Made by a program: the position numbers and the translations under genes
In this document: piece by piece, positions 1 to 58,889 of the stretch
Layout of the letters: each line of letters opens with the position of its first letter
How positions within the stretch are numbered: the first letter of the stretch is position 1
From: Dipteris shenzhenensis
Lineage: Eukaryota
Strand: one strand, 5' to 3'
Length of the DNA stretch: 64,000 bases
Assembly: GCA_047967505.1 (NCBI GenBank)
Contig: CM106538.1
The notes under the pieces: model-generated
Told to the model about the DNA's origin: nothing
Database searches by the model: none
What the model saw: the letters and a program-made list of their open reading frames with translations, nothing else

Positions 1-1050
1 AAATATATTCCCATCTTCATTTGCAAAATGACTATGACTAGAATGTCCACCATGATGATTTCCTTTGCCTTGGAAATTCCCTCGATTTCTATTGGATTGA
101 CTGCCTTGGTCATACTACTTCTTGCGGCAATCTCTTTCATAGTGTCCAAACTTGTGATAGTAGTTGCCCTGAATGTTTGACACGTTGGTGGATGCATTCC
201 CTCGTCCTTGGAATCTTCCTCAATTGGAATGATTTCCTCTTTGCTGATTTTGATGTTGCTGAGGATGATGCTGATGATGACCACTTCTCTGGAATGATTT
301 CCTCTCTACTTCTATCTGAGCTGTGAATGCCTGATAATTAGAATGACCTTTGCATGCTTGGATGGCTTGCGTCGTGAGTTCTTCACCAAGTAGGACTGAT
401 TGAAGTTCTTCCAGTGTCAAAATTTACCATTGGATGGCAATACTCTGAACTAGATTCTGGTATCCCTCTCCTAGTCCATTCAGGATTACTTGAACCATTT
501 CTGTGGGGTTCATAGTCTCTCCTGCTGCTGCAAGTTGATTGTTGTAGTCATTTATCCGGAGTACACAAGCATTACCAGTTTTGCTATTGTTGCAGAAACT
601 TTGGTTGATCTAGTTTCTCAGTGAGAATCCTAGATGTGTTCTTGGACTCGTAGAGGGCTGCGAACATATCCAAGCTTCTTTCAATGTCTTGACTATGTTG
701 AGCTATCCTAGCATAACATCTTGCACATTCTACTTGATCAGATGATAGGCATACTTGTCTTTCTTATCCCATTCTGCTTGATCTCGAGCAATGGCAAGAT
801 CTACTACAGGTGTGGAAACTGTCTGTGTAGCTGTAGATGTCGTTGTAGATCACACTGCTGGTGCTGTGACAATAGGTGGAGTAGAGCTACTGGTGGCTAG
901 ATCATCCAATGGTCTAGGAGTAGACCCATTGACATACTCCCATTTGTCGTGAAGTACTAGAATGGTCTCCATTCGGTATTTCCATGTACTATAATTGGAG
1001 TTATCTAGCATAGAAAATTTCTCTAGATTGAGGTTGCTAGTTGTAAACAT
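1..1050 (-). mobile_element. Ty1/copia element A, decayed gag (continues off the window start)
   Basis: ORF 850-1254 has LDNSNYSTWKYRMETILVLHDKWEYVNG, a typical copia gag N-terminus. ORF 220-420 has TLEELQSVLLGEE. A degenerate zinc knuckle (..YHKFGHYERDCRKK) lies near 120-170. Confidence 0.85.
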
Positions 1051-1551
1051 GGTGTAAGAAAATGTACTCAAAGTATCGTGAAAAATATATGTATGAGAAT
1101 CAACTGCAAAAAGCTGGCTATGCCAAGTGAAATCTTTGAACCGTCGATGAAGATAGAATTGCAATATATAAAATCTAATCTGTGTTACAAGGCTTGTGGC
1201 AAATGATGCCGGGAATAGCCAAGAGGCATTACAAGGCTGAAATGATGTGCACAATGCCGTGCAATGGCCATGTAGGCTTTACAATGGTGGCATGTGTGTG
1301 TGAAATCAAATTCTATCTGCCCACTCAATAATCAGCAATGCCTCTAAACTCTGAAGTCTACTCATTGAACTGATGAAACATCAGGTTTCAGGTAATGTGA
1401 TGATGTGAAACCGTATGTGAGTGTATGGACTGCGAGTAGGTACTAGTCAGGAATTTCGTGCATGGCTTAGATTGGCAACTTGGGGAAATTCAATGCGTCC
1501 CCTCTATGGCGATCTAGTCTACTCTAATTTGGATCTATACCAACCGTCAAG

Positions 1552-1974
1552 TGATGAAAGAACAGTAAATAATTCCTTTTCTTTTGTTCTTTTCAAGTGC
1601 TGGGTCAGATGCATCGATGTAGAGGCTGATGTGTGTGTACGAAGTGGATTTGTCCGGTGAGGCTCAAATGTCAGTGTAACTTGTGAAGAGAGTGGGAGAG
1701 AAGTAAGGAATCTCACTTGCAGCTTTCTCACATACACAATGGGGGAATACACACAAAGGTGGAGGCTGAAATCAGTTTTCCTCTTCTTAGTTATGAAAGC
1801 CAAAAGAACTTTCACTTAGTACAAAAGGAATAGATGAATCCTATATGTGGGTCTCAAACCAAACTTAGCTAACCTATGTGGCATACTAACTGAGCCACTA
1901 ACTAGAGTACATAAATATAGCTGTCATTCAGCTATTATTCATGGGCAGTGTACCAACCGCATCTGCAACTAACA
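1552..1974 (-). repeat. Probable 5' LTR of copia element A, nested in the 3' LTR of element B
   Basis: Minus strand starts TGTTAGTTGC at 1974 and ends ..TCATCA at 1552. It lies upstream of the gag. The PBS is only partially recognisable (TGGTATAG near 1535-1542). Confidence 0.5.
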
Positions 1975-4900
1975 AGTCGGTGACATAAATGCACAACGGT
2001 CATTTTGGCATATTATGAGTGGAGCTCGATATCTCAACACTCCCCCTTGAGCTCAATCCCAATTCTTGCACACCAAGCAGGTCTCTAAACTTGCGTAGCT
2101 TCTCTGTGCCCAATGCCTTCATGAATATGTCAGCTACTTGATCCTCTGTGCTGACATAAACCAGATCAATAAAACCTACTAGAACCTTCTCCTGCACATA
2201 GTGATAATGCACCTCAATGTGCTTTGTTCTAGCATGATAGACTGGGTTATTTGCCAAGTGTATACTGCTCATGTTGTCACAATAAATGACAACTGGCCCA
2301 TTTGTAGACTTATGCATATCATAAAGTAGCTTATGCAACCAAGCTACCTCACATGTAGCCATTGCTACACCCCTATACTCAGAGTCTGTGCTCGACAAGG
2401 AAACTATAAGCGGTTTCCTACTGCTCCAGGTGATTGTAGCACTCCCAAAAGAGAACACATATCCACTGGTAGATTGTCTATCAGAAATACTACCAGCCCA
2501 ATCAGCATAAGTGTATCCATGCAACTATATTTGAACCCCAGTCTCATAAAATAGTCCATACTGCAATGTGGACTTCACATACCTCAGTATGCGTCTAGCC
2601 ACATCCAAATGCGGTTTCATTGGAGCTTGCATAAACTGACTTACCAACCCAACAACATAGCTCAAGTCTAGGTTGGTAATAGTCATATAAATCAAACTTC
2701 TAACTATGCATCTGTACATAGTAGGGTCTTTCAGAAGACCACCTGCATTTGCACTCAACTTCACATTCTGCTCCAAAGGAACTGAAATAGGCTTACAACC
2801 TATCATCCCATATTTGGACAGCATGTCCAATCCATACTGCCTCTGCAAGAGCCATATCCCACTTGTGGATCTAATCACCTCAATGCCCAAGAAGTAACGC
2901 AGCTCTCCCAAATCCTTCATCTCAAACTTCTGCTTCAATAGCATTTTCACATGAAGGATATCTTCATCACTATCACTTGTGATGATCAAATCATCAACAT
3001 AAATGACAAGTAGCATAATACCTTTCTCTGTTTTTCTCACATAAAGTGAGAAATCTGCCGTGGAAATCTGAAAGCCAATAGTGACAATATATTGTCCTAT
3101 CTTGTCAGACCATGCTCTAGGTGCTTGCTTCAAGCCATACAAGGCTTTCTTCAACCTACAAACAAACTCAGGATGAACAACATGCACATAACCTGGTGGT
3201 TGCTCCATATAGACCTCTTCTTGCAAATCACCATGCAAGAAGGCATTCTTTACATCCATCTGATGTAAAGACCATCCCTTTAATGTAGCCATAGCAATGA
3301 CTACTCTTACGGTTGCCATCCTTGCAATCGGACTGAATGTTTCTTCATAATCAATGCCATATGTCTGTGCATACCCCTTGACAACTAATCTTGCCTTGTA
3401 TCTGCTCATAGAACCATCTGCATTGTGCTTCACCTTATAAACCCACTTGCACCCAATTGCATTCTTGTCTTTAGGCAAAGGCACCAATTCCCATGTAGCA
3501 TTTACTTCCAAGGCATCCATTTGTTCTCCCATTTTTGTTTTCCAGTGGCTTGCTCAAAAGATGTGGGTTCTGGTTCTTGTATCACTTTGACCATATAGGC
3601 ATAGTGAATGGCTGTAAATCCATCATATTTCAGCCTATCTAGAGGATACTTAACTCTGGTAGACCTGCGAAAAATAGGCTCACTACCAAGTGCTCTCAAA
3701 ACATCCCTTGTCTTCCTTACTCCAGGTGTAACAATAGAAGGAATACCCAACTCATCATCAAGGCTTTGTTCTAAGCCACTAGATTCACCATCCACATAAG
3801 AGTGACCTGCATTCACATCAACCATGGGCTGATCTACTTTCTCTTTTCCCTTTCGTGATACTTGCATACCACTATTTGCATTGCTTTAAGGAGATTCTCC
3901 TGATCTCAATCTGCTTGTCCATGGTGAAGTATATGAACAACTGCTAGAGGACACTATAGGTGCACTAATATTTGGTGATTGTTGCTGTGAATTCTATGTA
4001 GCATTACCATTTTGTGCATCTACATCATGAATCACATTTACTGGTTTATACCAGCTCTCGTCTCATCAAAAACAACATCTCTGCTCACTATAAACTTACG
4101 AGTAGAAGGGTTATAGTATCTATACCCTTTCTGCTGCAGAGAATAACCAATAAAGATGCACTTCTCAGCTTTTGGATCCAACTTGGATCTCAAATCATCT
4201 GGCACATGAACATAGGCAATGTAACAAAAAATTTCAAATGAGAAATATCTAGTTTCCTACCAGTATACCTCTCCTCTGGCATCATGCCATGTATTGCTGT
4301 AGTGGGAGTCCTTTTCATTATGTAGACTGATGTAGCAACTGCTTCAGTCCAATAATAATCTAGCAGGTCTTTTTCGTTGAGCATGGCACACGATAACTCT
4401 CCAATATGCTTGTTTTTCCTTTCTGCAAGTCCAATTTGCTGTGGGGTATGACTGCATGAATATTACTACTTTATACCATGCTCCTATAGGAACCTTGCAA
4501 ACTCTTTTGAGAGGTACTCTCCCCCTCCATCTAACCTTAGGCATTTTATTTGCAGGCCTGTTTCTTTCTCAACCATAGCTTTAAAAGCTTTGAAATGCCC
4601 AAACACTTCACTTTTGTTTTTCATAAAATACACCCAAACTTTTCTGTTGTAGTCATCAATAGATACAACTTTAGTAGTCCACACATCAGAGGATTAATTC
4701 CAATGGCCTCTTACTCTCTTGAACATGTCTAGGAAATGGTTTCCTTACATGGTCTCCAAATTGACAGGCTTCACATACCTTATGCATTTCTGCAACCTTG
4801 AACTTAGGCAATCCTGCAACAATATTTTGGGCCTGCATCAATTTAAGTCACTGTAGATTAACATGACCAATGCGTTTATGCCAGATATCAATATCTATAA

Positions 4901-5600
4901 CTACACCGGTCCCATGTGCAAACATTGCTGCACTCAATTCAGGCATGTCCGCATCCAACGTAAACATGCTGCCCTTCTTCTTCCCTTTTGCTATCAAGCG
5001 ACCTTTATTTTTCATATCCACAACAAAGCATCCATGAGGATCAAATCTGACTTGCAAGCCCTCCTCAAGCATCTTAGATAGACAAATGAATTTTACCAAT
5101 CTACACAGTAGGATGTGCAGTATCATCGCTAGTCTCCACAAATCCTGGTCTTTTCATTTTCCTTGCATCCTGCATCCATTCTGCATGACCTGTCATGTGG
5201 TTTGATGCACCTGAGTCAACATACCACACATCATTGCTTTCTTCTGCACTTGTCACAGAATTGGTCATGTGCTACACCATAAAAAAATGCTCATTTCTGT
5301 CATCACCCTGTCTACTAGAGGATGCATAATTGCCTTGCTGCAATTTTCCATTCATGATGTCATTCTGCTTTTTGTAGCAGTCTTTAGCCATATGACCCAT
5401 TTTACCACAGTAGTAGCATTCAACATTACTGTTTGCATTTTGACCTCGCTGCCATCCACCATGACCTCTTTGGCTCCCTCTGCCTCTAAGGTTACCATGT
5501 CCTCCTCCATAGGACTGGTTTTCTTGAATTTTCTGCATATTCTGATTTCTGCCATGGCGGTCGGCCTACTCTACCTCTGCCTCTACCTCTTCCAGCATTT
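1975..5600 (-). mobile_element. Ty1/copia element B: gag knuckle-PR-INT-RT-RNaseH, 5' truncated, frameshifted
   Basis: CYYCGKMGHMAKDC (5272-5538); WYVDSGASNHMT protease (~5190-5230); IWHKRIGH and integrase (4000-4900); RT with YKARLV, QMDVKNAFLHG, LYGLKQAPRAW, YVDD (2525-3532); RNase H with ADWAG, YCDN, RTKHIEVHYH, DQVADIF (2000-2524). PPT AAGGGGGAG precedes the LTR start TGTTGAG at 2039. Confidence 0.97.
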
Positions 5601-5619: not shown

Positions 5620-8316
5620 TTGAAGTTCCTCCTGAAGAAGATGCACCACCATTTCTCTGCTCTTAAGATATTAGAAGAGCAATCAACTCCCCAAAATCAA
5701 GAAAATTCTCACGGATGCATGCCAACTAATCTAATGATCAATAGTACACCACATGCACATGGATGCAGGTTCAAAAAAATGCTGCCACTAAAGAGGATGC
5801 ACAAAAAGAGCCCACTGCCTCAACCATGAGGACCCCTCTAGAGTTTGCAACCATCTACACCCATTGCCTCAACCACGAGACCCCCTCTAGAGTTTGCAGC
5901 CATTCACATCCTCTTAACCATGGCAACCATAGGCATTTGTGGTCCAAAGCGATAGCTTCGAGGAGGATTCAGTGCATGACCAAGAAGAACAAATGCCACC
6001 CCAGTCACCACTAGCCTACACAACCATTGACAGGGCCCGGTCACTGGAACTTGTTTGGCCACCTACATTGACTTATGCTCTTTCCAAAGAAGCAACATCT
6101 TACTTAGGGCAAAGGGGTCTAGGCAGTTTGCATGAGAGCCTAAAATCCTTGGAGGACAGTCCTACAATGACTGCATACATCAGGGAATTTCTCCACTCTT
6201 ACCACTTCAGCAATGCACAGGTTGGCAAGTACGGTACCATCACTATACATCAAAGCCCACTCAGCATTATCCTCAATGGTACAGTCATTCAAAGGGCTTT
6301 CTCACTCCCAACACAAGGTGCCAAATACTCTACATGGCCTACCGATGCAAAATTTCTCAAAGTATAGGCTCTCCTCACCAAGGGCCCAATGATCCATAGG
6401 GACGACATATTACTTCACACCATCCTTAACCATCGCCTCAGGGAAGTAGCATAATTCCTATCCACAATCCTGGGGGTTAAGTGCAGCAAGAATCAATCCC
6501 TTCCACCCCACACATTTGTCTTATTGAGTAGGAAGCTAAAGCAAGACTGGATCCAACACTTAGTCATCTTCTTTATAGAAAAACTAGATGGTTCATCAGG
6601 CCAAAAATGTAAAATTCCATACTTATTGGCTATAATCATAAAAAAAGAGCTACATGAATGAGAAATGATTCTGCCCCAGTCACCAAAACCAATTGAGGAG
6701 TTGGACATTCCCTTCTCACCAGTATGGGAGCTGTCACCAACTTGTCCTACTATCACATTGGCAAATGCAGATGCCTAAGAAGAAATACCTATTCTGGAGG
6801 TCAGAATTGAGGAATTGCCCCTCGAGATGCTACAACTCAGTGCACAACTGCAACCAATATATCTCCAACAATAGTAGCAACCAGAGCCTGAGGAAAGATC
6901 GACACCAGAGCTTGAGGCTACATCAACACTAGAATTGCCTATTGACACCATGCCAGTCGATGAGCCACAAGGGGAGCTAGTGCCAGATCAACAGTATGAC
7001 TATTGTACACAAGTGACTAATATACCATTGGAACAACCTCCCACAAGTACTACAGAATCATCAGGATGGCTACATGGGCACCACTTTATCAGTAGTATCA
7101 CCAGTCCTCATCACCGTCTATCATTCTCCAACATCAAGCTAGCCAAATGATCCAAATGTTCAAACTATTCATTAGCTTGGCCAAGGAGGAATATGCAAGA
7201 GAATTGGACAGACAGACTGCAAAAAAAATCGAAGACGATCCAATTCTAGGCAATTGCATAGAGGTCAAGGCACTTCGAGCACAGATAGATGAGAAGGAGC
7301 TAGAAGAAGTGTGCATGAACCAAGCTCTCCAAGGTCAAGAGAAGGTAGTGAGGGATGTGACTCCAACCTCCACCAAAGTCAAACACAGCTGTTAGTAGCA
7401 GTACAAGCAACGGCAATCCTACAAACCTACTGAAACTCCTTGACCTCCACACATGCTCAGTAAACGGAGGTAGTGGCACAAGCTCAACTCACTCTAATTA
7501 ACAAAGAAGAAGAGCTTCAGGATTACAAAGACAAGCTTGAAGACATGAAACCAATCTTTGGAAGTACACGCCTTCAGCATTGACGAGCTTACAAGAGAAT
7601 GCAAAATCTTAAAGAACCAACTTGCTACCGCTAAAGAGGCTAGCACTTCACAAGCACAAGTCTTGGACCAATGGTCCAATACCACTGAAGACATTTCTCA
7701 ATAGGCGAAGGTCACCTTGCAAATGAAAAAGCTTAAGGAGGCATATACAACCATCTACCAGAAATACAAAGAAAAAATGGAGGAGATGCACTCCCAAAAG
7801 ATAATCATCTCCAAGCTTAAACTCCAATTGCTAGTGCACAACAATGAGGCAATGGAAGACAACACCAATGAAGCCCCACTACAATGCACAATGGTGGTGT
7901 ACCAAGAGCTTGTGGGTGCTCTACAAGTGGAAGATCACCTCAACACATGCGTGCTCCAAATCAAGATCATATCCGCTCATCCAACAATCAAATGGGAATG
8001 TTCCATAGGGACCAAAACTCTAAGAAACTCCAAATCAAGATCATATCCGCTCATCCAACAATCAAATGGGAATGTTCCATAGGGACCAAAACTTTGCGCA
8101 TAATTTGCCAAGACTTATCTAAAGATGAGAAAAATATCTTTTGCCTGTCTACCCATGTCGGGTTTAGAGTAGTTAGGATGGATGCTTTCATTGCATATGT
8201 ATGCCTCATGGGTAGTCCTCCCCTCAGGGTTATTGCTGGTTTGTTGCCATTGCTACAAAGACCATCACTATTATTTGCAAGGCATGACATAACCGACATC
8301 CCACCCATGCAACTGA
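5620..8316 (+). pseudogene. Decayed long ORF with coiled-coil tail, probably an LTR-retrotransposon accessory ORF
   Basis: A chain of + strand ORF pieces (5939-6367 LVWPP..YIREFLHSY, 6935-7395, 7717-8354) is broken by stops. No catalytic motif recognised. Confidence 0.35.
7955..8093 (+). repeat. Tandem duplication, ~72-bp period
   Basis: TCCAAATCAAGATCATATCCGCTCATCCAACAATCAAATGGGAATGTTCCATAGGGACCAAAACT occurs twice. Confidence 0.95.
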
Positions 8317-8489
8317 CATTAGGGGAGAATTGGAGTCTCAAAAGGGCCTCATAAGGAATGGATTAGTCCTAATGAAAGGGCCAAGTTAGGTCCCAAAAAG
8401 TCCTAACCCCCCCTCACCTAGGTGGGTTAAGCCCAAAAGTGACCCCACCTCTTATACCTCTTACACAACTCTTACTCCTAAGTGGGAAC

Positions 8490-9000
8490 CAAAAAATTCA
8501 AAATTCAAAATTCGAATTTTGAATTCCCTCCCTCCTCTCTCCTCCTTCCCTCCCTCCTCCCCCTCCTCACTCCCTCCTCCCCCTCCCTCCTCCTCCCCCT
8601 CCCTCCCTCCCTCCTCCCCCTCCCCTCTCCTCTCCTCCCCCTCCTCTCTCCTCTCCTCACTCCCTCCTCCCCCTTCCTCCTCCTCCCCCTCCCTCCCTCC
8701 CTCCTCCATGCTTGCTCCTCCTGCTCTCCCCCTCCCTCCCTCCTGCATGCTTGCTCCTCCTCCCCTCCCCCTCCCTCCTCCTCCACTGCTCCTCCTCCTC
8801 CCCCCTCCCTCTTGCTCCTCCCACCTCCCTCCCTCCTCCTCCATGCCTACTCCTCCTCACCCTCCACACCTGCTGGTCTGCCCCCTTTCCTCCTCTTCAA
8901 CCACTGGTCCTCCCTCCTCCATCCCTCCTCCTCGCCCTCCCTCTTCCTGCGTGCTACTCCTTCAAGCCTGCATCTCCACACCTTCTCCTTCTCTACACTC
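8490..9000 (+). repeat. Subterminal (TTCAAAA)n motifs plus a ~480-bp polypyrimidine (CCT-rich) tract
   Basis: Seen directly; its purine-rich mirror lies at ~24450-24770. Confidence 0.9.
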
Positions 9001-9008
9001 CTTTAGTC

Positions 9009-11918
9009 ATGGCACCGTTTGAGGATGTCTCCAACAAGTACCAGGTTCACTTAGAGTTGGAGGCTGAATATGCAAGCACACGTCTAGGATTAAGGGGAGC
9101 CTCCAAAATCCACAGTCTTTGTTACAAGGAAAGAAGCTTCTCGACCTTTGGGTAGAAGGATCCTTGTATCCTTTAGATCCTGCCAACCAAAAGAGGCCTC
9201 CTTTCCATACAATGCATGAGCTAGTTTAGTTTGTTAGAAATGGACATGCGGGGTTGCTTGGTCATTGCAATCAGTTAAACAATGCTCAATCAATGGCTAT
9301 GTAAGCAAGTGAGATGCACAGAGCCCAAGCAGAGATGCTAGCACATTTAGAAAATAGCACCATTGTTGCAATGCATAACTCTATGCAGCATCTTCAAAGG
9401 AAGAACCAAGATCTTCATGATAAAGCCAAAGCATTGGACTTAGAGTGAAATGCATTGGACTTGAAGTGACATAAATTAGAAGAGTCACTCTGTAAGCTAC
9501 CTGAGTCCAAAAAAGGCTTGGAAAGATCTATATACAATCAATTTCGATGAGCCGTAGAGAAGGAATGAGAGAAGGTAGAAGAATGAGTGCAAAAGATGAA
9601 AGAAACACCTTTGGGATTGAAGGAGAGGAAAATAAGGTACTTACATAACATGGATGCATTGGCACCCACTGGTGGTGCTAGAAAGAGGAGAGTCTGGGCT
9701 ACAAGGTTGGTTATCAAATGTTCCAATGAGATTACACTCTTTTGTGCTACACTATTTGTGACTAAGTTTTTATTGTGTTCTTCTTTAGGAACTTCATGGA
9801 AGATGTGATGGGAAGAACAAACGAGATGATATTGACTGTTCATATGTTCTAGCTAGTTTATTGAAGTCAAGCAATGTCATTGGGATACTAAGGGACTCGA
9901 CACAAGTTCCTACATGTGCAAGTTGCTGAAGAGGTGATGAAGGACTTCAAGAATATTGTGGATGCAAAGGAGATGCTTGCAGCTTGTGATACTACCAGTG
10001 AGAGTCGTGAAGCTTACACATCTGTTTTCAAAATTTTCAAGTTTGCTATTTTGGGAAAGTATAAGAAGCCTATAGTGCCCCTACCCACACCTTGGTCTGT
10101 GAGACGTGCATGGCAAGAAACAAACTAATGTGCAAGAGAAATTCTTGGAGGGTACCATTGCATAAGGGGCACAATGACTTGGAAGAGTAAAAAGAAATCT
10201 GGCTTGCAAACCTTTGAGATGAATGCTTTCAACAATGTCTACTTAGATGTTGAGAAACTACAACAAGCAATGGTCAAATTTTATGGCATGAGAGAAGATG
10301 GTAAGATGAAATCCATTATAGCATTGCACTTTACTTAGTTCATTTCCTATATCATGTTTATCCTAATGATTTCTCTCTTTTGTTGTACAGATTGCAATGG
10401 AAAGCTCATATTTGTCATCACAATGGATGAAGCTCAATCGATGAAAGAACACAAGTTAGAGAGAGTCACCATCTACATTATGAATAAAGCCTTAGCCTTT
10501 GTTCAAAGGAACGAAGAAGTAGAGCAAGATTTCTCAATGCAATCAGAGAAAGATATATGGTGGCTTGTAGCATTTGAGACTCCAAAAGAGTGCCATGAGA
10601 TATTGAAGTGGGTCCTAGATAGAACAGGAATCCCATCGATGATCCAAAGATAAGAGGAAGGGAAAACATTGACAGTCGATGGCCATGGAACCTTTCAAGT
10701 TGAATGGCATCTTACTAGTGATTTGAAAACCCTCAAGTGCTTGCATGGTTGAGATATAGGGGCAAATGCAATGAACACATGCCTTTATTGCATGTGTTTG
10801 CAATGTAAGCAAAAGGCTGGCTTACAATGGGAGAATGGCATTCTATCTTGTAGCCAAACGCAAGCTCCCAATTGTGATAAGAAGCATCCAAAGTGGGATC
10901 CCATCTTGCCCATCCCACTTGAGAGAGTACACATATGTACTTTACATGTAGAACTATGCGTACTTGACATGTTGTTGTATTTGCATCTTGTTTATGCTTG
11001 GAATTTAATTCCGCAAGAAGTATACGGTGCATTATAGAACCTGAGAAGTTGCTGTCAGAGATGGGATTCCATGGAGGACATGTCAAACTTAAGGAGGATA
11101 AGAAAATGTCTGGGGCAACACAGAATCTTCCTGCAAAAGTATCCATGGGTGGAGGGAAGGCAAGGAGATTCCTATCGAACCACAATATTGACAGAGACAA
11201 GTATACATCGTCTCAAAGTAGTTTGGGTTGGGAATACTGGAAAGCATTGTGTGAATGCATGACCAATAAGGCTTCTCATCCTCAAGTAGCAACTTTGAGA
11301 GCTAAAGTATGGACAAAGGTAGATGCATTGATAAAATTGCTTCGCCAGGTTCAAATCAATGAGATGTATTATGAAAGGTGTAGGATGGCAGTGAAAGAGT
11401 TTATGCAATTAATGGTGAAAGCATGGGGGGAGTCGCACATTACACATTACATGGTAATCTTGGCACCATCATAATATTTAGCACTTTTTTTTTAAATTGT
11501 TTTTGTTGCTAAAATGATTCTCATCATGTTTGCAGCATATTTTCTATGCATGTGCACGGACCATGGTTTGTACAAAATTAGGGTCCTTTGTCCATTTAGA
11601 ATACACAAGGCATGGAGAAGTCGCACTATAGAGCCAAGGTAGCCTACTTTAAGAACTCAAGGCATGGTGGTGGTGTCACTTGCAGCAATGCATTGCATGA
11701 GATGCTCGACTAGTTTTTTAGATGTTTACTAGGAAGGACTTTGAAGTCTGAAAAGGCAAAGGCATCAAAACTTGCAAAATCAATTCAAATTGTATCAAAG
11801 AATAGAAGGCATACTGCTTGGAAAGCATCCATAGGAAGTTGAGGAGTCACACATTAGTTGCAAGCTAGAGTGAGAGAAGGGAGCAGATGTCCAACCAGCA
11901 ATAGAAGCTATGGTGTAA
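9009..11918 (+). pseudogene. RAG1/Transib-like DDE transposase, 4 exons (introns 9706-9788, 10301-10390, 11454-11535), with stops and frameshifts
   Basis: FVITMDEAQ (first D); WHLTSDLKTLKCLHG..NTCLYC (second D plus CxxC); ICTLHVEL; ITHYM|HIFYA(H)GPWF..GPLSI*NTQGMEKSH (HxxxxH plus catalytic E). These are collinear with the RAG1 core motifs YDEKLVREVEGL..ICTLC, DALH and ITNYFHKTLAH..AWASEGNES. The introns have GT..AG boundaries. Confidence 0.85.
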
Positions 11919-12029
11919 TTGTATACAAATATGAAATAAATATATTGCTTATTTTGACCATAATTTGTGTACTCACTCTTTAATATCTTGCTTATTTTGA
12001 CCACAATTTTTGTACTCACATGACATTGG

Positions 12030-12232
12030 GGAAAGTGGGGACATGGTGAAGGAGGGGGGAGAGAAGGGAGGGGTGTGGGGTGGGGCAAGGGGAGGGGTGG
12101 AGTGGTAGCAAGGGTGGGGGGAGGGGGGGATGGGGGGTATGGGGGAGGACAACAGGTGTGGGCAGGGCAATGGGGGGGATGGCAACAAGGGTGGGGGGGT
12201 TGGAGGGGTTAGGGCAGGGGCATGGGGCATGA
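12030..12232 (+). repeat. G-run tract (G-quadruplex-prone) between transposase and H3-like gene
   Basis: More than 15 runs of 3 or more G in ~200 bp. Confidence 0.8.
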
Positions 12233-12268
12233 TGAAACCCTAAACATAATTAAAAGGGATGTCAAAAC

Positions 12269-12667
12269 ATGATGGGCCTATATAAAGCATTAAAAAAGGC
12301 AGACAGGAGGCCGTGAGATCATGTTTGGGTACCTATAAAGCCTCCACCAAGAGTCAAGAAGCCGTACAGAACAAAGCCAAGAGCACGGGCCCTAAGGGAG
12401 ATTAAGCAAATGTAGAAGACCGCCGACAACCTAAACTCGCATGCTCCCTTCCAATGTGTGGTACGGGAGATAGCACAGGGATACAAGTATGACGTGCGAT
12501 TTAGCATAGGATCTATGGGGGTGCTCCAGGAGGCTACGGAGCAAGTGACCATTGCTCTATTTGAGGACGCCAACTTGTGTGCCATCAATGCAAAGCACAT
12601 CACGGTCATGGACAAGGACATGGCTTTGGCAAAGTGGCTATGGAGTGACCCAAGTTTGAAGCCCTAG
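12269..12667 (+). pseudogene. Divergent, intronless histone H3-like gene with two in-frame stops
   Basis: One frame reads MMGLYKALKKADRRP*DHVWVPIKPPPRVKKPYRTKPRARALREIKQM*KTADNLNSHAPFQCVVREIAQGYKYDVRFSIGSMGVLQEATEQVTIALFEDANLCAINAKHITVMDKDMALAKWLWSDPSLKP. It aligns without gaps to H3 from VKKPHR to DIQLARR. Stops are TGA at 12314 and TAG at 12413. The start codon is uncertain. Confidence 0.93.
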
Positions 12668-16560: not shown

Positions 16561-17959
16561 CTATAGCAAGTAGGCCCGAGCAAGAGGGACCAAAGAAAGA
16601 GGGGGAAGAGGGAAAATGCATGGGATTTGGTTCAAACGGAGTGATTTGGCAGGCTGGACCAGAATAGTGGGGGGTAGAGGCCCTAAAAAGAGGGAGGGGA
16701 GAGAAAAATTTGCCAGAAGGTCCCTACCATCCCATTGAAGGCAGTTTTGGGCTCATGTGGGGAAGGGTTTGGTCCAACATATTTCAATCCATAGTGATAA
16801 GACTCCCTTTTAATAGAGGCCAAGAGTTGCACCCTTGAGGGTTACAATCCACACACTTGTGTACATTCTTCACCACATACTTGTTCACATCCTTAGCCAT
16901 GTAATACATTGGTCATGTTCCATGTGACACCGTTAATGAGGCCCATGCTTAATTCATGTGCCTCTTCATGTGAACCATGTGCACACTCAGATTTAACCTC
17001 TAGGTATTTCTCTACTATACTTGAGAACCATGTTTTGATAAGCAATGACTAATCCACCAATTACGAAAAGAAAAGAATCTTGATCTAGCAATTCTGTTTT
17101 TTTAAAAACTGATTACATAATTTTAAATCATTGTTTTAAATCAAGCAAGTCAAATTCCTTAAAACTCGTTTCCACTATATTGAGAAGTTTTAGAGATTGC
17201 ATATTATAAATGCCACTTGTCTACAAATGCTTTTTGGTCCCCGTAAATGTCCATCAACTCTTATGTGATAGTGTCTTTTAGCATTTCCTAAAGTTTACCT
17301 ACTCTATCTAGGCTATGTACTCTTTAAATCTTAGAGAGCTATCTGTCCATAACCCTTACTTGTTTCAACATGCCACTCATAAGTCTTCTTATGAAGGCTT
17401 CATTGGGCCTTTGGGAAAAGATAAGAGTGTATCCAAGGTAGTACAAATCAAATTCCAAATCTTGATGAGCCTTAAAAACTCATGAAATTAAATGATTTAA
17501 ATCTGATCGAGAGTGGGATGGGTTAGCCACACTCTTTAGTGGCATCTGGTTTAGCTTAACTTTGGAATTCTAAGGCAAATGTCTCCAAGTGTCCGTGCTT
17601 CCTATGCTATCGTGTTGTAGCATGCTCTCGCCCTTGCACTCCTCCCTCCTCCTCCCTCCTCCCTTCTCCTCCTCCTTTCTCCTCCCTCGTCCTCCCTTCT
17701 CCTCCTCCCTCCTCCTCCCTCTTCCTCTCTCCTCCTCAACCCTCTTCCTCCCTCCTCCTCAACCTGCTGTTACCCCCTTCTAAACCCTTAACCCCCTGAA
17801 TTTGCGAAGGAGACTAGCTCTCCACTCCTCAGCCCTACAACCTTCTCTCAACCCCAAACCTTCTCTAAGCCTTGGATTCCCTAAATAGCTTCCTCAACCC
17901 TACCCTCTTCCTACACCCTACAAACATTTTCTAGCTACACATATACCACAACAATGACA

Positions 17960-24440: not shown

Positions 24441-24962
24441 CAAAAAGTAGGGCGGGAGGAGGAGGACACATGTGGGAGGAAAGAGGAGGAGGAAAAAGCA
24501 GCAGGGGGAGGAGGATGCATGTGGGAGGAGGGAGGAGGAGGCATGTGGACAAAGGGAGGAGGAGGGGGGGAGGGAGGAGGGAGGCAATGGGAGGGAGTAG
24601 GAGGAGGAGGAATGGGACATGTCGAAGAGGAGGGAGGAGGGAGACAAGGAGGAGGATGGGGGGAGGAGGGAATTCAAATTCAAAATTCAAAATTCAAAAG
24701 TTTGACTTTGGAGGATGGGGGGAGGTGGGAGAGAGAGGGAATTTAAATTTGAAATTCAAAATTTTGACTTTGGGAAAAGTACCCCCTCCTTGGTGTAAGA
24801 GGTGGCCCCCTCCTAGGTGTAAGAGGTGTAAGAGGTTGGATCAACTAGGCTTAACCCACCTAGGTAGGGGGGGTTAGGACTCCCTTGGACCCCACAAGAG
24901 GACTTGCATTAGGCCTAATCCATTTCTTAATCCATTCCTTATGAGGCCCTTCTGAGACCCCA

Positions 24963-27900: not shown

Positions 27901-30600
27901 GTGTAGAAGTCGTTCCAATTCCATCAAACTAATAAGTGGAGAATTGGGCACATCGAACTCTCCCCTCTGGAACCTCTCTATTGCATCGCTCCCCCCTCGG
28001 CTGACGTGCCTCAATCTCTCCCTCCTCAATTGATGTGCACTATTCTACTCAGCCAACCTCGATTGCTATGCCCTACATTACCTCTAGACTCCCTGTGTGC
28101 CTCCTGTGTGCCCACATGTTTCTGTTCTCTCCCACAACTCACTGAGCCTATGTGATGCCTCGACTCTGATTGCTATTTCTGCCTCGGTTGGGCTGATTAA
28201 TGCTCCTCGAGTTTACTCGTTGATTGCCCTATTAACATCCACAAAGTACTATCATTAAATGTAGGGTAATCAATGAGTTAAGGTGACCAAGCCGAATGAT
28301 CTACTTCAACAAGACAAGCTCAAGGGAGTTTGATACCCAAAAACACCAAGGTCAATGATTACAAGCAATGTGCACATGGAAGGAGTATTGCTCAAACTCA
28401 GGGAGTTTGATCCCCAAATACCCTAAGCCCACCCAAAAGTCCAAAGATTCCAAGCAATGTGCATAGGTTGTATGTTCCACCTGCCCCCACCCAGAATAAA
28501 GAGGTATTGGAACACGGAGATGCACACTTCTGAGCAACAAAGAGTGCATGCACCTTGCACTGTTCAGCTCCACATCCATAGGAAATAGCGACATCAATGA
28601 AAATAACCATGAAAGAAGTACAGTTTAAACTCAGGGAGTTTGTTCCTCGGATGTGCACACTTTTCGAGCAAAAACCTACGAGCAAAAAAGTCCGAGCTTT
28701 AATTTTTGACACCAACGATGCTTGTATATTTCTCAAAGGAATATACAATTCTTTCTTAATTTCTCATTTATGGAACCATATACTTACTTATTTTTCATTA
28801 TAACCCTCATTTTAGAGAACATCATCTATATATGAACAAATAGTGAACACTTTAGAAACTCCTATAAATACCTCCCTACCATACTCTCTTTTGAGGATTA
28901 TGGTAATTAAATCAATTTAAAAGAGTTTCCCTAATCTTTAGCAATCCCATATTTGAAGCTCTCATATAACAATGTATACCATATTCCTTGGATGAGTAGG
29001 AAAAAGATTTTGGAAACCTCATACTTCAGGCCATTATAATCGATCTTAAATTAATCTTTGATACATTATCAAATATGGGAAGGCAAGGAATGAATTTTCA
29101 AAATATTCCCAATTCTCCAAACCTAAGTACTTTTAAGGAAATGTGGTCTCTATTGAACTCCTTCCTACCATAATATGAATTAGGGAGAAGTTCTAACTCT
29201 CATATACATCTTGAAATTTTTACTTTTTATATTTTATAACTATCAAAAGTATAATTTTAAGCCTACCATTGCATAGATCATGAAATTTTGAACATTTTTC
29301 CTTTTTACAACTCCTCAATCTAAGATAAGGAGCAAAAGTTATGACCCCTTCTGCATAGGCTCTCCAAGGGTATTTTGCCAGCAGAATAGGGTTGGGGGGC
29401 AAGCTCTTCAAACCATATTCCTTTGGAAAAATACACTTAGAGGGTCTATTAAAAAAGTATTATATTATTTTCTTAGGTCATCCTGAGGAACTATAAAGAG
29501 GATATTTGCTCAAAATTTCATGATCCAACCAATGGTGAAAGGAAAAGAAAGGATTTTTGAAAGTGATAAAATAAGTCACCACTTGGACATTATATATGTA
29601 TATTATATAAAGGTATATTTATATCTATATCTATTTATTAGTATTTCATATCTACTTACATATTCCTTGAAATAATTTGGATTTTTTTGCTCCCCAAAAA
29701 TGACTTGAGCCTATATATTTTGACCCCTCCTACCTTTTGTCCGCTCGTCGCTCGGGGGTTTTTGCTCAGAAAATGGAAACCCCCGTTCCCCAAATATCAT
29801 CCCAAGATAGCGTTATCATTAAGTGTCTCGACAAAGTTGAGTCTTGCCACTCTAGGTTTGAGTCTCATTCATCATACATGACCACAAATAGGTGAAGGTG
29901 TGAGGGCGCTCAGGGAGTTTAAACCCCAAATCACCTGAGCCTAGGAGTGGCAAGGCTAACACAAGCACTATTTGGGAACCGATTAGGATCAACTCCTAAT
30001 ACCAGGTTTGTCCCAAGTGCCTTAATTTGTTAACATAAGCACTATTTCTGCTAGCAGGGAGAGTCAGTAAAAATAACAATATGCCTTGGCACCATACGAG
30101 CCCAAGAGCCCATGGTTGTAAAGTGAGGAAGAGTGCTAAAATGGAAAAGGGTTGGCCCTCCCTTCAAAAGGTGACTTGTATAAAAGGCCAAAAGTTTGAC
30201 TTTGGTCTTCATTGTGGTTTGCACAAGTTTGAATACAAGATCCCTCTTCTCTTCCAAAAGAGTGTTTTGGGTGTTCTCTTGTTTCCATTGTAGTGCCTTT
30301 GTGGTTGTCACTCTATCCCCCTTCACTCCCTTCTCCTTCTTCCCTTCCTCCTCCTCCCTTCTCCCTCCCTCTTCCTCTCCCCTCCCCTTCTCCCCTTCCC
30401 TCTTTCTTGCATGAAACCACATTGCAACAATCCGAAGGCTGCTTGAGTGACACTTGTGGATGGCTCATGCTATATAGGCATTGCTCCCACAAGGAGTAGC
30501 CAGGAGTGGAAGCTCCGTCAACATATCTTCAACTATCCCATGACATGTGAGTCACCGTTGAGACCCATTACACTCCCTAATGATGGATTCTGAGGTTCCT
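27900..30600. mobile_element. Probable gypsy LTR/leader remnants
   Basis: A recurrent TCAGGGAGTTT-type motif at ~28320, 28398, 28631 and 29910; no ORFs. Boundaries uncertain. Confidence 0.35.
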
Positions 30601-55681: not shown

Positions 55682-58600
55682 TCACTCCATTGTGGAGTCA
55701 GCATCAGAGTCAGAATCTATTCTATGAGACAAATTGGATAAAGCTCGCTTGTGTGCAATGGTTGGTATCTTCACCTTGATGGGGAGGTTGCTACTCTTCG
55801 AGGAAACCTTCTTTGAGAGGTTACATTTTGGAACCCATGACCATACAATAGCATCAATAGATTCCCAATGTGGAGGATCACCTTTATTGCACATCCAAAT
55901 CTTGTTCCAACAATCTCCATACACCTCCTCAATTTGTGCATTGTGTCTTTTGCATATAGGTGCCCAATATTGTATGAAAACCTTCTTGAATTTTTTAGAT
56001 TTATTATCCTTCTGTACATCAGTTTGAGCAATGCCTAGCCAAATTGGGTAAATTTTTTCTGTTGGTTAGACCAAAAGAAAGTGTCCTTTTTGTACATCAA
56101 CCATTGGATTAAATGATTGTTTTGGCTTTTTCCTTTGAGGTCCACAGTAGTGATCATTCAACTCTTCAATTCCTTGAAACTCATCATTTTCATTATCAAC
56201 TACTTGCACACAATCAATATGTTGCGTCTTTGGCCAAAATCTCTCATACATGCCCTCTACACTATTGTTTGGTTTATCAAGCTCATCAATCATGTTCTTC
56301 TAGTACTTCACTACTGGCTTGTAAAACTTTGTGAAAGATGCTTCTGGACCTTGCAAGTGCACCCATTTTTCCCAAAAGCATACATACTCCTTGATACCAA
56401 CTATCACATCTAAGTGATCCTTCACATACTCGAACATGATTACACAAGGTGGCTCTCCACTTGGTAGCATTGGATGAACATTCGGATGTCTCTTCCACAA
56501 CTCAATGCCACCTTCACTTGGTTGGCAATCTAATGATCGTGGATGCACTTTATATTGCATGATAGGAGCTTCATTTCACATAAAGAACCGAAATTGGAGA
56601 GGCTTTGAGTGTCCCACTAAAGAATCCTGTCCATTGCATAGGCATCCATCAACATAGCTCTTGAAATCAGGGACTTCCGTTACCAAAAATGGCATTGGAG
56701 AAGACTCCTCACATTGTCTAAAAGTATCCATGAGATGTGCAAATGTTAATGTTTGGCTAGTTCTTAACCTCTCTGAAAACCTACTAAACATTGCATCAAT
56801 ATCCTCATGTGTATGCCCAACCATCAAGAATCCCAATTGAATTGACTTGAAAATCCCTCGAGCAACAAGTAATGATAGGTATGCAAACAAGTACCTATTC
56901 TTGTTTTCAGAACCACAATTATCCAACTGCAACAATAGGTGTTCGGGTAGTTTCTTATAAGGATTTTATTGATGGGAACTTCCAAGTCCAAGGTCTTTGA
57001 ATGTTCCACCCACTGCTCCAAGATGAAGTTGTTGCTTGCCATTAGAAACATAGTGAGAATCCAATGCTTCTCTTGAGGTTAGCGTGTTTAGTAGAGCGTT
57101 GTTAGACCTTGGCATCCCATCATGTACCAAATCTCCAAGTGCATGGTTATCAAATCTTTCAAGATTTCTCAAACACAAAGCCAATGAACCAATTGTGAAG
57201 TTAGGATCTGACGGCCACAAGGATAAAGAAAAGTGACCATAACATCCTTGACCATGTCCATGTGTTATCATTCCAGTCAAAGACACTAGGAGCTGAAAGA
57301 ATTTGTCTATGTCCTTTGAACGATTGCATAATCTAGGGATGGCTGTCTTCTTTTGGTCCATCTTATCATGGATAATGCACAAGTATGTCTGAGGATACAT
57401 TTCAAAAAATCTACGCCAAGTGTAGTACACATTTCTACAACTTTTTTGTTGTAACATGTGCTTTCTTCTATCTTCCATCAACTTATTACGTTCATTTTGG
57501 CATTTTGGCCTTGATTGCACTACATAAACCACACTTAGAGAATTCACTTGTTTTTGACAAAGTTAAATGCTTGAATTCAGAGTGCCATATGTGGATGAAC
57601 GTGGAAGTTGACATCTCCTTACAACCCAAACTATGCTTTAATTGCATGTTAACCTCATAGAGAATATCAACTTGCTTGTATACATCTGGTATCACCAACT
57701 GTGTTTCCCTTGATCCATCTTGAAGTGTTCTACTTTTGTGTGGAATACACTCAGAATTGTTATCCACAAAATCTTGGATTATGGCTCTACCTAAATCTGT
57801 GTGGTCCCAACCTCTCCGCACGATTCCTTTATTACCGTGCATGCACCTTCATATACCAATTTCAAATTGCTCCCTGTATCAATAAAATGTTGTTTTTGGA
57901 ATACCATGCATTTCATACCATGCTCTACAACAAACTTGAATACCATTCAATGAAAAGACATATTTGAACTGCCTATTGTCATCTTTTCGACAAGCAACCC
58001 CAAGAGTGTCATATACATAATTGGTGCGAGCCTCCAAACTTTGGCCCCAATACTCTATGCGTAATTTGCATATCATTTGACGATCGGCAAATCGATAACA
58101 ATTTTGTTTACAACAATCAATCATAGATACTTTTGTGACTGCATCCCTTGTGAGTCTAGATGATGCCAATTGCATGCCATGTTTTTTAGCTTTCCTTTTT
58201 ATCATGCAGTAACGCCTCTTTTTTGTGGATTTTTCCATTGGATCCTCATATTCCATGTGCTTTTTCCCAGAACCACTTGGAGAATTCATGGTGTCATTGA
58301 TTCTTAATGAAGTTCCATCTAAAAAGGTTATTTGTGCAATGGGCCATTTTATTAAGTGGATGGTATCGATGCCTGATACATCACTATGATACTTTTCAAT
58401 TCCCACACCTAGATTACCTTCACCAAGCATCTCAAAATTTATAGGTTCAAATTGGTAGACATACAAAACAACACCCTCTGCAATGCTCTTGGTTTTCTGC
58501 TCATCCCATATTAAAACTTTATTGTCCTTCCATGATTCTCGAATGGAAAGCTCATCATATTCACATAGAGGTTCAACATCAATGGTATCCGATGTTATAT

Positions 58601-58889
58601 CATTCATTGGTATAATAGCTCCATTGACATTGTCCACACAACTCATTGATTAGGCTTTCCAACAAACAACACTACCCAAAGCCTCATAGACTAAGAATGC
58701 ATCCATTGTAGGAAATGGAAGAAGTGCACTTTCATCCATACAAATATCGATCGCCACCGATACATTATTTTCTCCCAAGGGCACACCTTGGCACATGTCA
58801 TCATGTGATGTAGAGAATATTGTCCCAATGGCAACAATCTTTCCACTGACAAGCAAGTTGACTTTAACCCCCACTTTCAATGTGGCACC
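55682..58889 (-). pseudogene. Large DUF7869-type (Sola-like) RNase H-fold transposase candidate, ~1070 codons, with two N-terminal Tnp1/En-Spm-like beta domains
   Basis: Eight ORF-track pieces join into one reading frame with a single frameshift near 57500. Motifs: IVAIGTI..QGVPLGENNVSVAID..LLPFP..GSVVCW; CCKQNC; NGIQVCCRAW..HGI; HGNKG; FSKCGLC; IHDKMDQKK; LQLDNCGSENKN; FLMVGHTHEDIDAMFS. A splice acceptor lies at ~58890. Confidence 0.8.

Follow-up and report, generated by a model that had tools for sequence, protein, structure and literature searches.

A probable relic of a RAG1/Transib-type transposase gene in Dipteris shenzhenensis

We analysed a 64,000-nucleotide stretch of contig CM106538.1 from the Dipteris shenzhenensis assembly GCA_047967505.1 (hereafter the window) and found that positions 9892-11907, on the plus strand, very probably hold the inactivated transposase gene of a cut-and-paste DNA transposon, whose enzyme belonged to the RAG1/Transib superfamily. 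In vertebrates, RAG1 cuts the antibody genes; V(D)J recombination has its root in this superfamily, and there is active debate about which hosts carry it and how its deep branches are arranged. Judged by its sequence, the locus is a decayed, inactivated copy of a transposase gene, and the coding relic is genuine, with homology far beyond chance. The family to which it belongs is large, unannotated and intron-bearing; its members occur in eukaryotic assemblies and go unrecognised by Pfam. Fold, profile, sub-threshold Pfam and language-model features all favour RAG1/Transib, an assignment with good support from both fold and motifs; these four lines are not fully independent because several share relatives and alignments.

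Gene structure and lesions of the relic

The closest relative with a long open reading frame (ORF), P0158 (363 aa), matched the window by tblastn at 74% identity (E = 8.7e-150), and eight more relatives (P0003, P0085, P0166, P0019, P0107, P0051, P0127 and P0164) were colinear on the window by the same method. Upstream of ~9874-9892, none of these nine relatives gave a tblastn match, and the frame at 9792-9926 reached a BLASTP E value of 20 against P0003. The initial annotation, made from the letters of the window, had let the gene begin at 9009; the 5' part that it claimed (9009-9891, with a TAA at 9889-9891) is without homology support. From there on, all coordinates of the gene being on the plus strand, exon A (9892-10300) precedes the catalytic core, and P0003, P0085, P0166, P0019 and P0107 are colinear with the window from ~9892. 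Intron 1 (10301-10390; 90 nt, GT..AG, phase 1) has a stop inside, and a 30-codon gap falls exactly there in all five of the homologues that span it. Exon B (10391-11453) corresponds to a single unbroken ORF in P0158. Intron 2 (11454-11535; 82 nt, GT..AG, phase 0) occupies a position common to relatives: at its donor, the gene calls of P0003, P0016, P0017, P0005 and P0158, among many relatives, end just past THY[MI]V, so these calls read into the GT of the intron, and at its acceptor, P0127 and P0164 read across the 3' end as ..CLQ joined to HIL. Exon C, which includes the C-terminal tail, covers 11536-11907 with an approximate 3' limit; P0164 aligned by tblastn at 60.5% identity over 11546-11887 and terminates a few residues past window position 11887, and P0051 and P0127 are colinear as well. 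Three spliceosomal introns had been proposed for this gene, and the homologues support only these two. We rejected an intron at 11019/11020, the third, as P0158 is contiguous across the site and aligns there without a gap; exon B therefore carries a net -1 frameshift at this point.

The homology-supported region contains eight in-frame stops. One, a TAA at 10126-10128, lies in exon A, and two lie in exon B (TAA at 10651; TGA at 10750-10752, where relatives have Cys). The remaining five fall in exon C: TAG at 11579, 11597 and 11711, each in place of a Trp in relatives, TGA at 11840 and TAG at 11855. A 4-bp insertion near 11550 had already been noticed, and this reading was borne out: the letters tgtg at 11551-11554 in exon C interrupt an HxxxxH motif, whereas four relatives (P0164, P0051, P0095 and P0127) read straight through with an unbroken HIL[YF]AHGP[WY]F. 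Because of the eight in-frame stops, the frameshift and the insertion, this copy is dead and unable to make an enzyme. What had been read as a gene is a pseudogene, and by itself this copy serves no function.

Motifs, profiles and fold

The motifs that had been singled out as RAG1-like, SDLKTLKCLHG..NTCLYC, ITHYM, HIFYA and NTQGMEKS, are present in the places given for them and in RAG1 order. In exon B, the first Asp of a putative catalytic triad lies within MDEAQ (D at 10426-10428), and the second opens SDLKTLK (10720-10722). The string SDLKTLKCLHG..NTCLYC is indeed encoded at 10717-10791, but the codon directly after its HG is the TGA stop at 10750-10752. A CxxC in the form CLYC (10780-10791) and a CTLH (10936-10947) follow, and a candidate helical insertion region extends up to HITHYM (11436-11453, with ITHYM at 11439-11453). 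Exon C begins with HIFYA (11536-11550), which is followed by the inserted tgtg and then by HGPWF from 11555, so that the two His of HxxxxH are encoded at 11536-11538 and 11555-11557; NTQGMEKS lies at 11600-11623, and the Glu of GMEKSH at 11615-11617. The order D, D, E (MDE, SDLKTLK, MEKSH) found in the window is conserved across the family alignments A1 and A3. This triad appears colinear with the catalytic D, D, E of RAG1, the two Asp being assigned by colinearity and by the predicted fold. CxxC and HxxxxH both occupy the places expected for the RAG1 ZnC2/ZnH2 region, where the model of the relative P0101 has a predicted local distance difference test (pLDDT) score of ~50-70.

We searched 177,635 PDB sequences with profile A3, and RAG1 accounted for the top three of the five matches (E = 0.009, 18.3 bits). 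In this alignment, the MNG..AR stretch of the family falls on the same motif of RAG1 and GSL..W falls on GSIGAW; the consensus H(IL.YA)H is matched to H(KTLA)H of RAG1, and the MEKSH Glu is aligned with the Glu in the GNES motif of RAG1, which we take to be the catalytic residue. Pfam scans of relatives were performed at E ≤ 0.1 and at E ≤ 10. The RAG1 family PF12940 was the sole Pfam match of P0051 (E = 0.0038) and P0095 (E = 0.0032), at profile positions 553-593, and gave no match for the window pieces or for the relative P0001. In the ESM Atlas, the top three clusters for P0001 carry RAG1_ZnC2/ZnH2 (scores 0.96, 0.96 and 0.95), and RAG1 was the only named set for P0051 (0.93).

For structural comparison, two relatives, P0097 and P0101, stand in for the broken protein of the window. 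The P0097 model (635 aa) had a pLDDT of 71.9 and a predicted template modelling (pTM) score of 0.67, and Foldseek against PDB returned 49 matches at E ≤ 1e-3 (best 6.8e-11). Ranks 1-49 among the matches listed were all RAG1, BbRAGL or HzTransib; rank 50 was Hermes (3.7e-3). By VIA, model residues 118-545 were placed on RAG1 552-994 (4wwx_B; Z 18.2, root-mean-square deviation 3.7 Å, 359 aligned), followed by HzTransib (6pqx_A, Z 16.3), BbRAGL (6b40_A, 16.2), P element (10.7), ISCth4 (6.6) and Hermes (6.1), so that the RAG1/Transib set leads the next family by more than 5 Z. An exhaustive VIA comparison of P0097 with 48,161 chains gave RAG1, BbRAGL and HzTransib at ranks 1-6 (Z 18.0-12.9), then P element at 10.4 and the rest at 7.8 or below. 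The model of P0101, a relative that has CxxC, HxxxxH and E, was weaker (pLDDT 62.6), and its Foldseek ranks 1-44 among the matches listed were likewise all RAG1, BbRAGL or HzTransib (best E = 1.2e-3). The predicted structures of these two relatives thus contain what appears to be the RAG1/Transib core fold, comprising an RNase H domain, an inserted helical and zinc-binding module and a C-terminal domain. The assignment to RAG1/Transib proposed in the initial annotation agrees with these results: RAG1, BbRAGL and HzTransib are the best structural matches of both relatives, and neither hAT (Hermes, Z 6.1) nor P element (10.7) is the best match of P0097 (RAG1, 18.2).

An intact enzyme of this kind would have an RNase-H-like DDE (Asp-Asp-Glu) site made up of the Asp residues of MDE and SDLKTLK together with the Glu of MEKSH, and its CxxC and HxxxxH pairs would be placed as in the ZnC2/ZnH2 zinc-binding module of RAG1. 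From what RAG1 and HzTransib do, such an enzyme would be expected to pair the ends of its element and to nick the paired ends, and the element would be released via hairpins on the flanking DNA.

Competing explanations

Several observations weigh against a RAG1/Transib origin. A scan of the window found no terminal inverted repeats (TIRs) or 5-bp target site duplication (TSD), the features that define Transib elements, above chance; the best CAC..GTG end pair (8865/12160) scored 16/20 with no TSD, and shuffled sequences reached 16 in 2 of 30 cases. The folded relatives are 30-33% identical to P0001 and are not the protein of the window itself, and the P0097 model falls below a pLDDT of 50 around the catalytic Glu. 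The A3 match to RAG1 in PDB is marginal in significance (E = 0.009), and RAG1 was absent from the PDB matches of profile A1, which is without the C-terminal columns that A3 includes, and from those of P0001 by phmmer. No family reached the Pfam cut-off for the window pieces, for P0001 or for 25 other relatives; PF12940 appeared in 2 of these 26 relatives, at 15.8 bits (P0051) and 16.1 bits (P0095) compared with a gathering cut-off of 25. Among the ESM Atlas clusters for P0001 are Plavaka and Transposase_21, both at 0.91. Finally, we know of no solved structure for the CACTA/Mirage/Chapaev (CMC) and KDZ transposases, and no CMC or KDZ entry is present among the listed PDB fold matches of P0097.

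The best placed of the other explanations, though improbable, draws on the last two of these points: the locus would be a relic of a CMC or KDZ/Plavaka-type transposase, and its likeness to RAG1 would arise because no CMC structure has been solved. CMC transposases, too, have Cys/His motifs near their DDE residues. With no solved structure known to us and no such entry among the matches listed, the fold search cannot rank these families. The other evidence points the other way. The Plavaka and Transposase_21 clusters of the ESM Atlas stand 16th and 23rd for P0001, both at 0.91, but the RAG1 clusters stand higher at 0.96; the PDB match of A3 is to RAG1, with H....H and E in residue-level register; and Transposase_21, Plavaka, KDZ, CACTA and hAT were found by Pfam in none of the 26 family proteins, RAG1 being the only transposase family in these scans. 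Best matches to ordinary CACTA or hAT proteins had been named in the initial annotation as the finding that would speak for a different origin; among the relatives scanned, none matched a CACTA or hAT Pfam family. Two further proteins, P0108 and P0112, which matched by phmmer in multiple stretches, were left out of the alignments; their Pfam matches (VPS53_C, DmmA-like_C and EVE) are unrelated and without a supporting stretch, and we rejected them.

A second explanation, slightly harder still to credit, is that the relic is foreign DNA in the assembly, either contamination by animal or fungal material or DNA that arrived horizontally very recently, and not part of a resident lineage. The ESM Atlas neighbours of P0001 and P0051 are mostly animal or fungal clusters, and for Transib elements in general the phylogeny departs from that of the hosts, with massive horizontal transfer held responsible for their spread (PMC9435367). 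Against this, the neighbours of the relic within the 64-kb window are a copia-type retrotransposon (RVT_2, E = 2.8e-79) on one side and other repeats on the other, and the closest family has 77 near-identical members on many contigs. A recent arrival is also unlikely because the relic is heavily decayed, with its eight stops and two frame changes.

We give least credence to domestication as a RAG1-like host gene, or to an origin as part of a ProtoRAG-type (RAG1L+RAG2L) transposon: the fold of P0097 is slightly nearer to RAG1 (Z 18.2, 14-16% identity) than to HzTransib (16.3, 8-9%), but the reading frame is destroyed, and at 4-18 kb, where 46 ORFs are 75 aa or longer, the 37 scanned gave no RAG2 or Kelch Pfam match (the other nine being low-complexity frames), a scan that a decayed partner could escape. 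The same 37 flanking ORFs are in line with the initial annotation, which had seen no RAG2-like kelch partner.

Relatives and known systems

A RAG1/Transib transposase thus remains our preferred reading, and its relatives are numerous. We performed phmmer with P0001 against 1,835,955,588 representative proteins and obtained 190 relatives at E ≤ 1e-3, 88 at E ≤ 1e-10 and 19 at E ≤ 1e-30, most of the 190 being fragments. The 90%-identity cluster of P0001 has 77 members, and none of the 40 checked bears a name. Searches for longer homologues returned P0001 only (exon-B query) and nothing (P0051), and a homologue search with A1 returned P0097, P0187 and P0188 only; from these three queries we obtained not one intact protein combining D, D, CxxC, HxxxxH and E. 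In one clade, all four full-length members (P0097, P0170, P0086 and P0187) retain D, D and E, but their CxxC has lost its two Cys and their HxxxxH its two His. Such joint loss of the four ligands would be expected if the Cys and His pairs formed one metal site. We also searched metagenome contigs for related loci with A4 and P0097 and found no confirmed locus, while tblastn of P0001 gave no match in phage records, a collection of little relevance here. Each of eight sequencing runs contained at most 0.11 of the words sampled from the window, with no RNA run among those listed.

Among known systems, the RAG1 core (mouse and zebrafish; PDB 4wwx, 3jbw and 6dbo) is the best structural match of P0097, and the relic family has the motif order D, D, CxxC, LH, HxxxxH, E in common with it. 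The family differs from RAG1 in that P0097 is only 14-16% identical to it, that no match is reached at the Pfam level and that one subclade is without all four zinc ligands; moreover, the family is a multi-copy, intron-bearing mobile element, of which the window holds a dead copy with no RAG2-like neighbour found. HzTransib (Helicoverpa zea; PDB 6pqn and 6pqx) has the same fold (Z 16.3; 12.9 in the exhaustive VIA comparison) and is likewise a single-protein DDE transposase without RAG2, but both its identity to P0097 (8-9%) and its Z are lower than those of RAG1. The lancelet BbRAGL/ProtoRAG (PDB 6b40) also shares the fold (Z 16.2; 15.9 in the exhaustive comparison); unlike the relic, beside which none was seen, ProtoRAG has a RAG2-like gene.

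The presence of this superfamily in a plant, which the initial annotation had put forward as new, is a weaker claim to novelty than it seemed, given that 39 Transib-like proteins have already been reported from plants (PMC9435367). The species in the legend of Fig. 1f of that study are five angiosperms, Juglans sigillata, Capsicum chinense, Corrigiola litoralis, Hordeum vulgare and Silene latifolia, and the legend of Fig. 1h places at least CchTransib_3309 with Subgroup II (PMC9435367). These proteins resemble the relic family in being RAG1/Transib-superfamily sequences in plant genome assemblies; the relic family differs in being too divergent for the Pfam RAG1 family and in having conserved introns and many decayed copies. 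Set beside them by description, the relic family may or may not be of the same lineage as these plant Transibs. In the accessible part of a Pfam-domain screen of 1007 plant genomes in which Transib was included, recently active TIR elements are reported in seven superfamilies, of which Transib is not one (PMC12973397), and the accessible part of a transposase survey gives only 35 Transib transposases in all (bioRxiv 10.1101/2021.09.26.461848). Because it escapes Pfam, this large family with the RAG1 fold would be missed by such domain-based screens. Our searches of the literature for plant Transib found no description of the relic family, and the supplementary data of PMC9435367 may contain one. 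The relic is an inactive copy from a family that is divergent and unannotated but falls within a known superfamily, and Transib-like sequences of plants are already in print.

Tentatively, and with more doubt than confidence, we propose that the family is an old, vertically kept, intron-bearing RAG1/Transib lineage of green plants, which Pfam-based surveys of transposons would overlook and which would be structurally nearer to RAG1 than insect Transib is and would stand apart from the horizontally transferred Subgroup II plant Transibs. Such a lineage might have intact and possibly active members in related genomes, and a sister clade without the zinc site. Should it prove to be resident in plants, the family would provide a deep branch with which to root RAG1/Transib trees and, one clade being without all four ligands, a natural experiment on the zinc-binding module.

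Surroundings of the relic in the window

Low-complexity arrays lie on both sides of the relic. Upstream, a C/T-rich array (8520-8960) is inverted relative to a G-rich array downstream (12020-12235), which is ~71-86% complementary to parts of it. Similar arrays occur elsewhere in the window (17637-17768, 24450-24680 in reversed orientation and 30316-30413), and given these, the upstream array may be a separate repeat. The repeat at 8317-8960 comprises a unique head (8317-8466, ~80-94% identical to 24962-24817) followed by the C/T-rich array, and this combination of head and array recurs in both orientations, at 24450-24962 (reversed), 17637-17768 and 30316-30413. Directly after the relic, two 38-nt direct repeats (11939-11976 and 11982-12019) are 92% identical and could be subterminal repeats of the element. 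Further upstream, a perfect direct duplication of 66 bp was found at 7954-8019 and 8028-8093, the two starts being 74 bp apart.

Just 3' of the G-rich array, a degenerate histone H3-like fragment on the plus strand (12416-12664) matched the Pfam Histone family (E = 4.3e-17, profile positions 50-118 of 122); either a pseudogene or the capture of a fragment could account for it. A search of the whole window against Rfam gave no matches. The retrotransposon mentioned above is of the Ty1/copia type and lies on the minus strand (850-5600), with RVT_2, Retrotran_gag_3, DUF4219, a zf-CCHC knuckle and a weak gag_pre-integrs; copia-type retrotransposons are common in plants. Finally, two long ORFs of 198 and 256 aa lie at 56966-58649 on the minus strand, the first with a weak match to DUF7869 below the cut-off (E = 2.2e-4), and this may be another transposon-derived gene.

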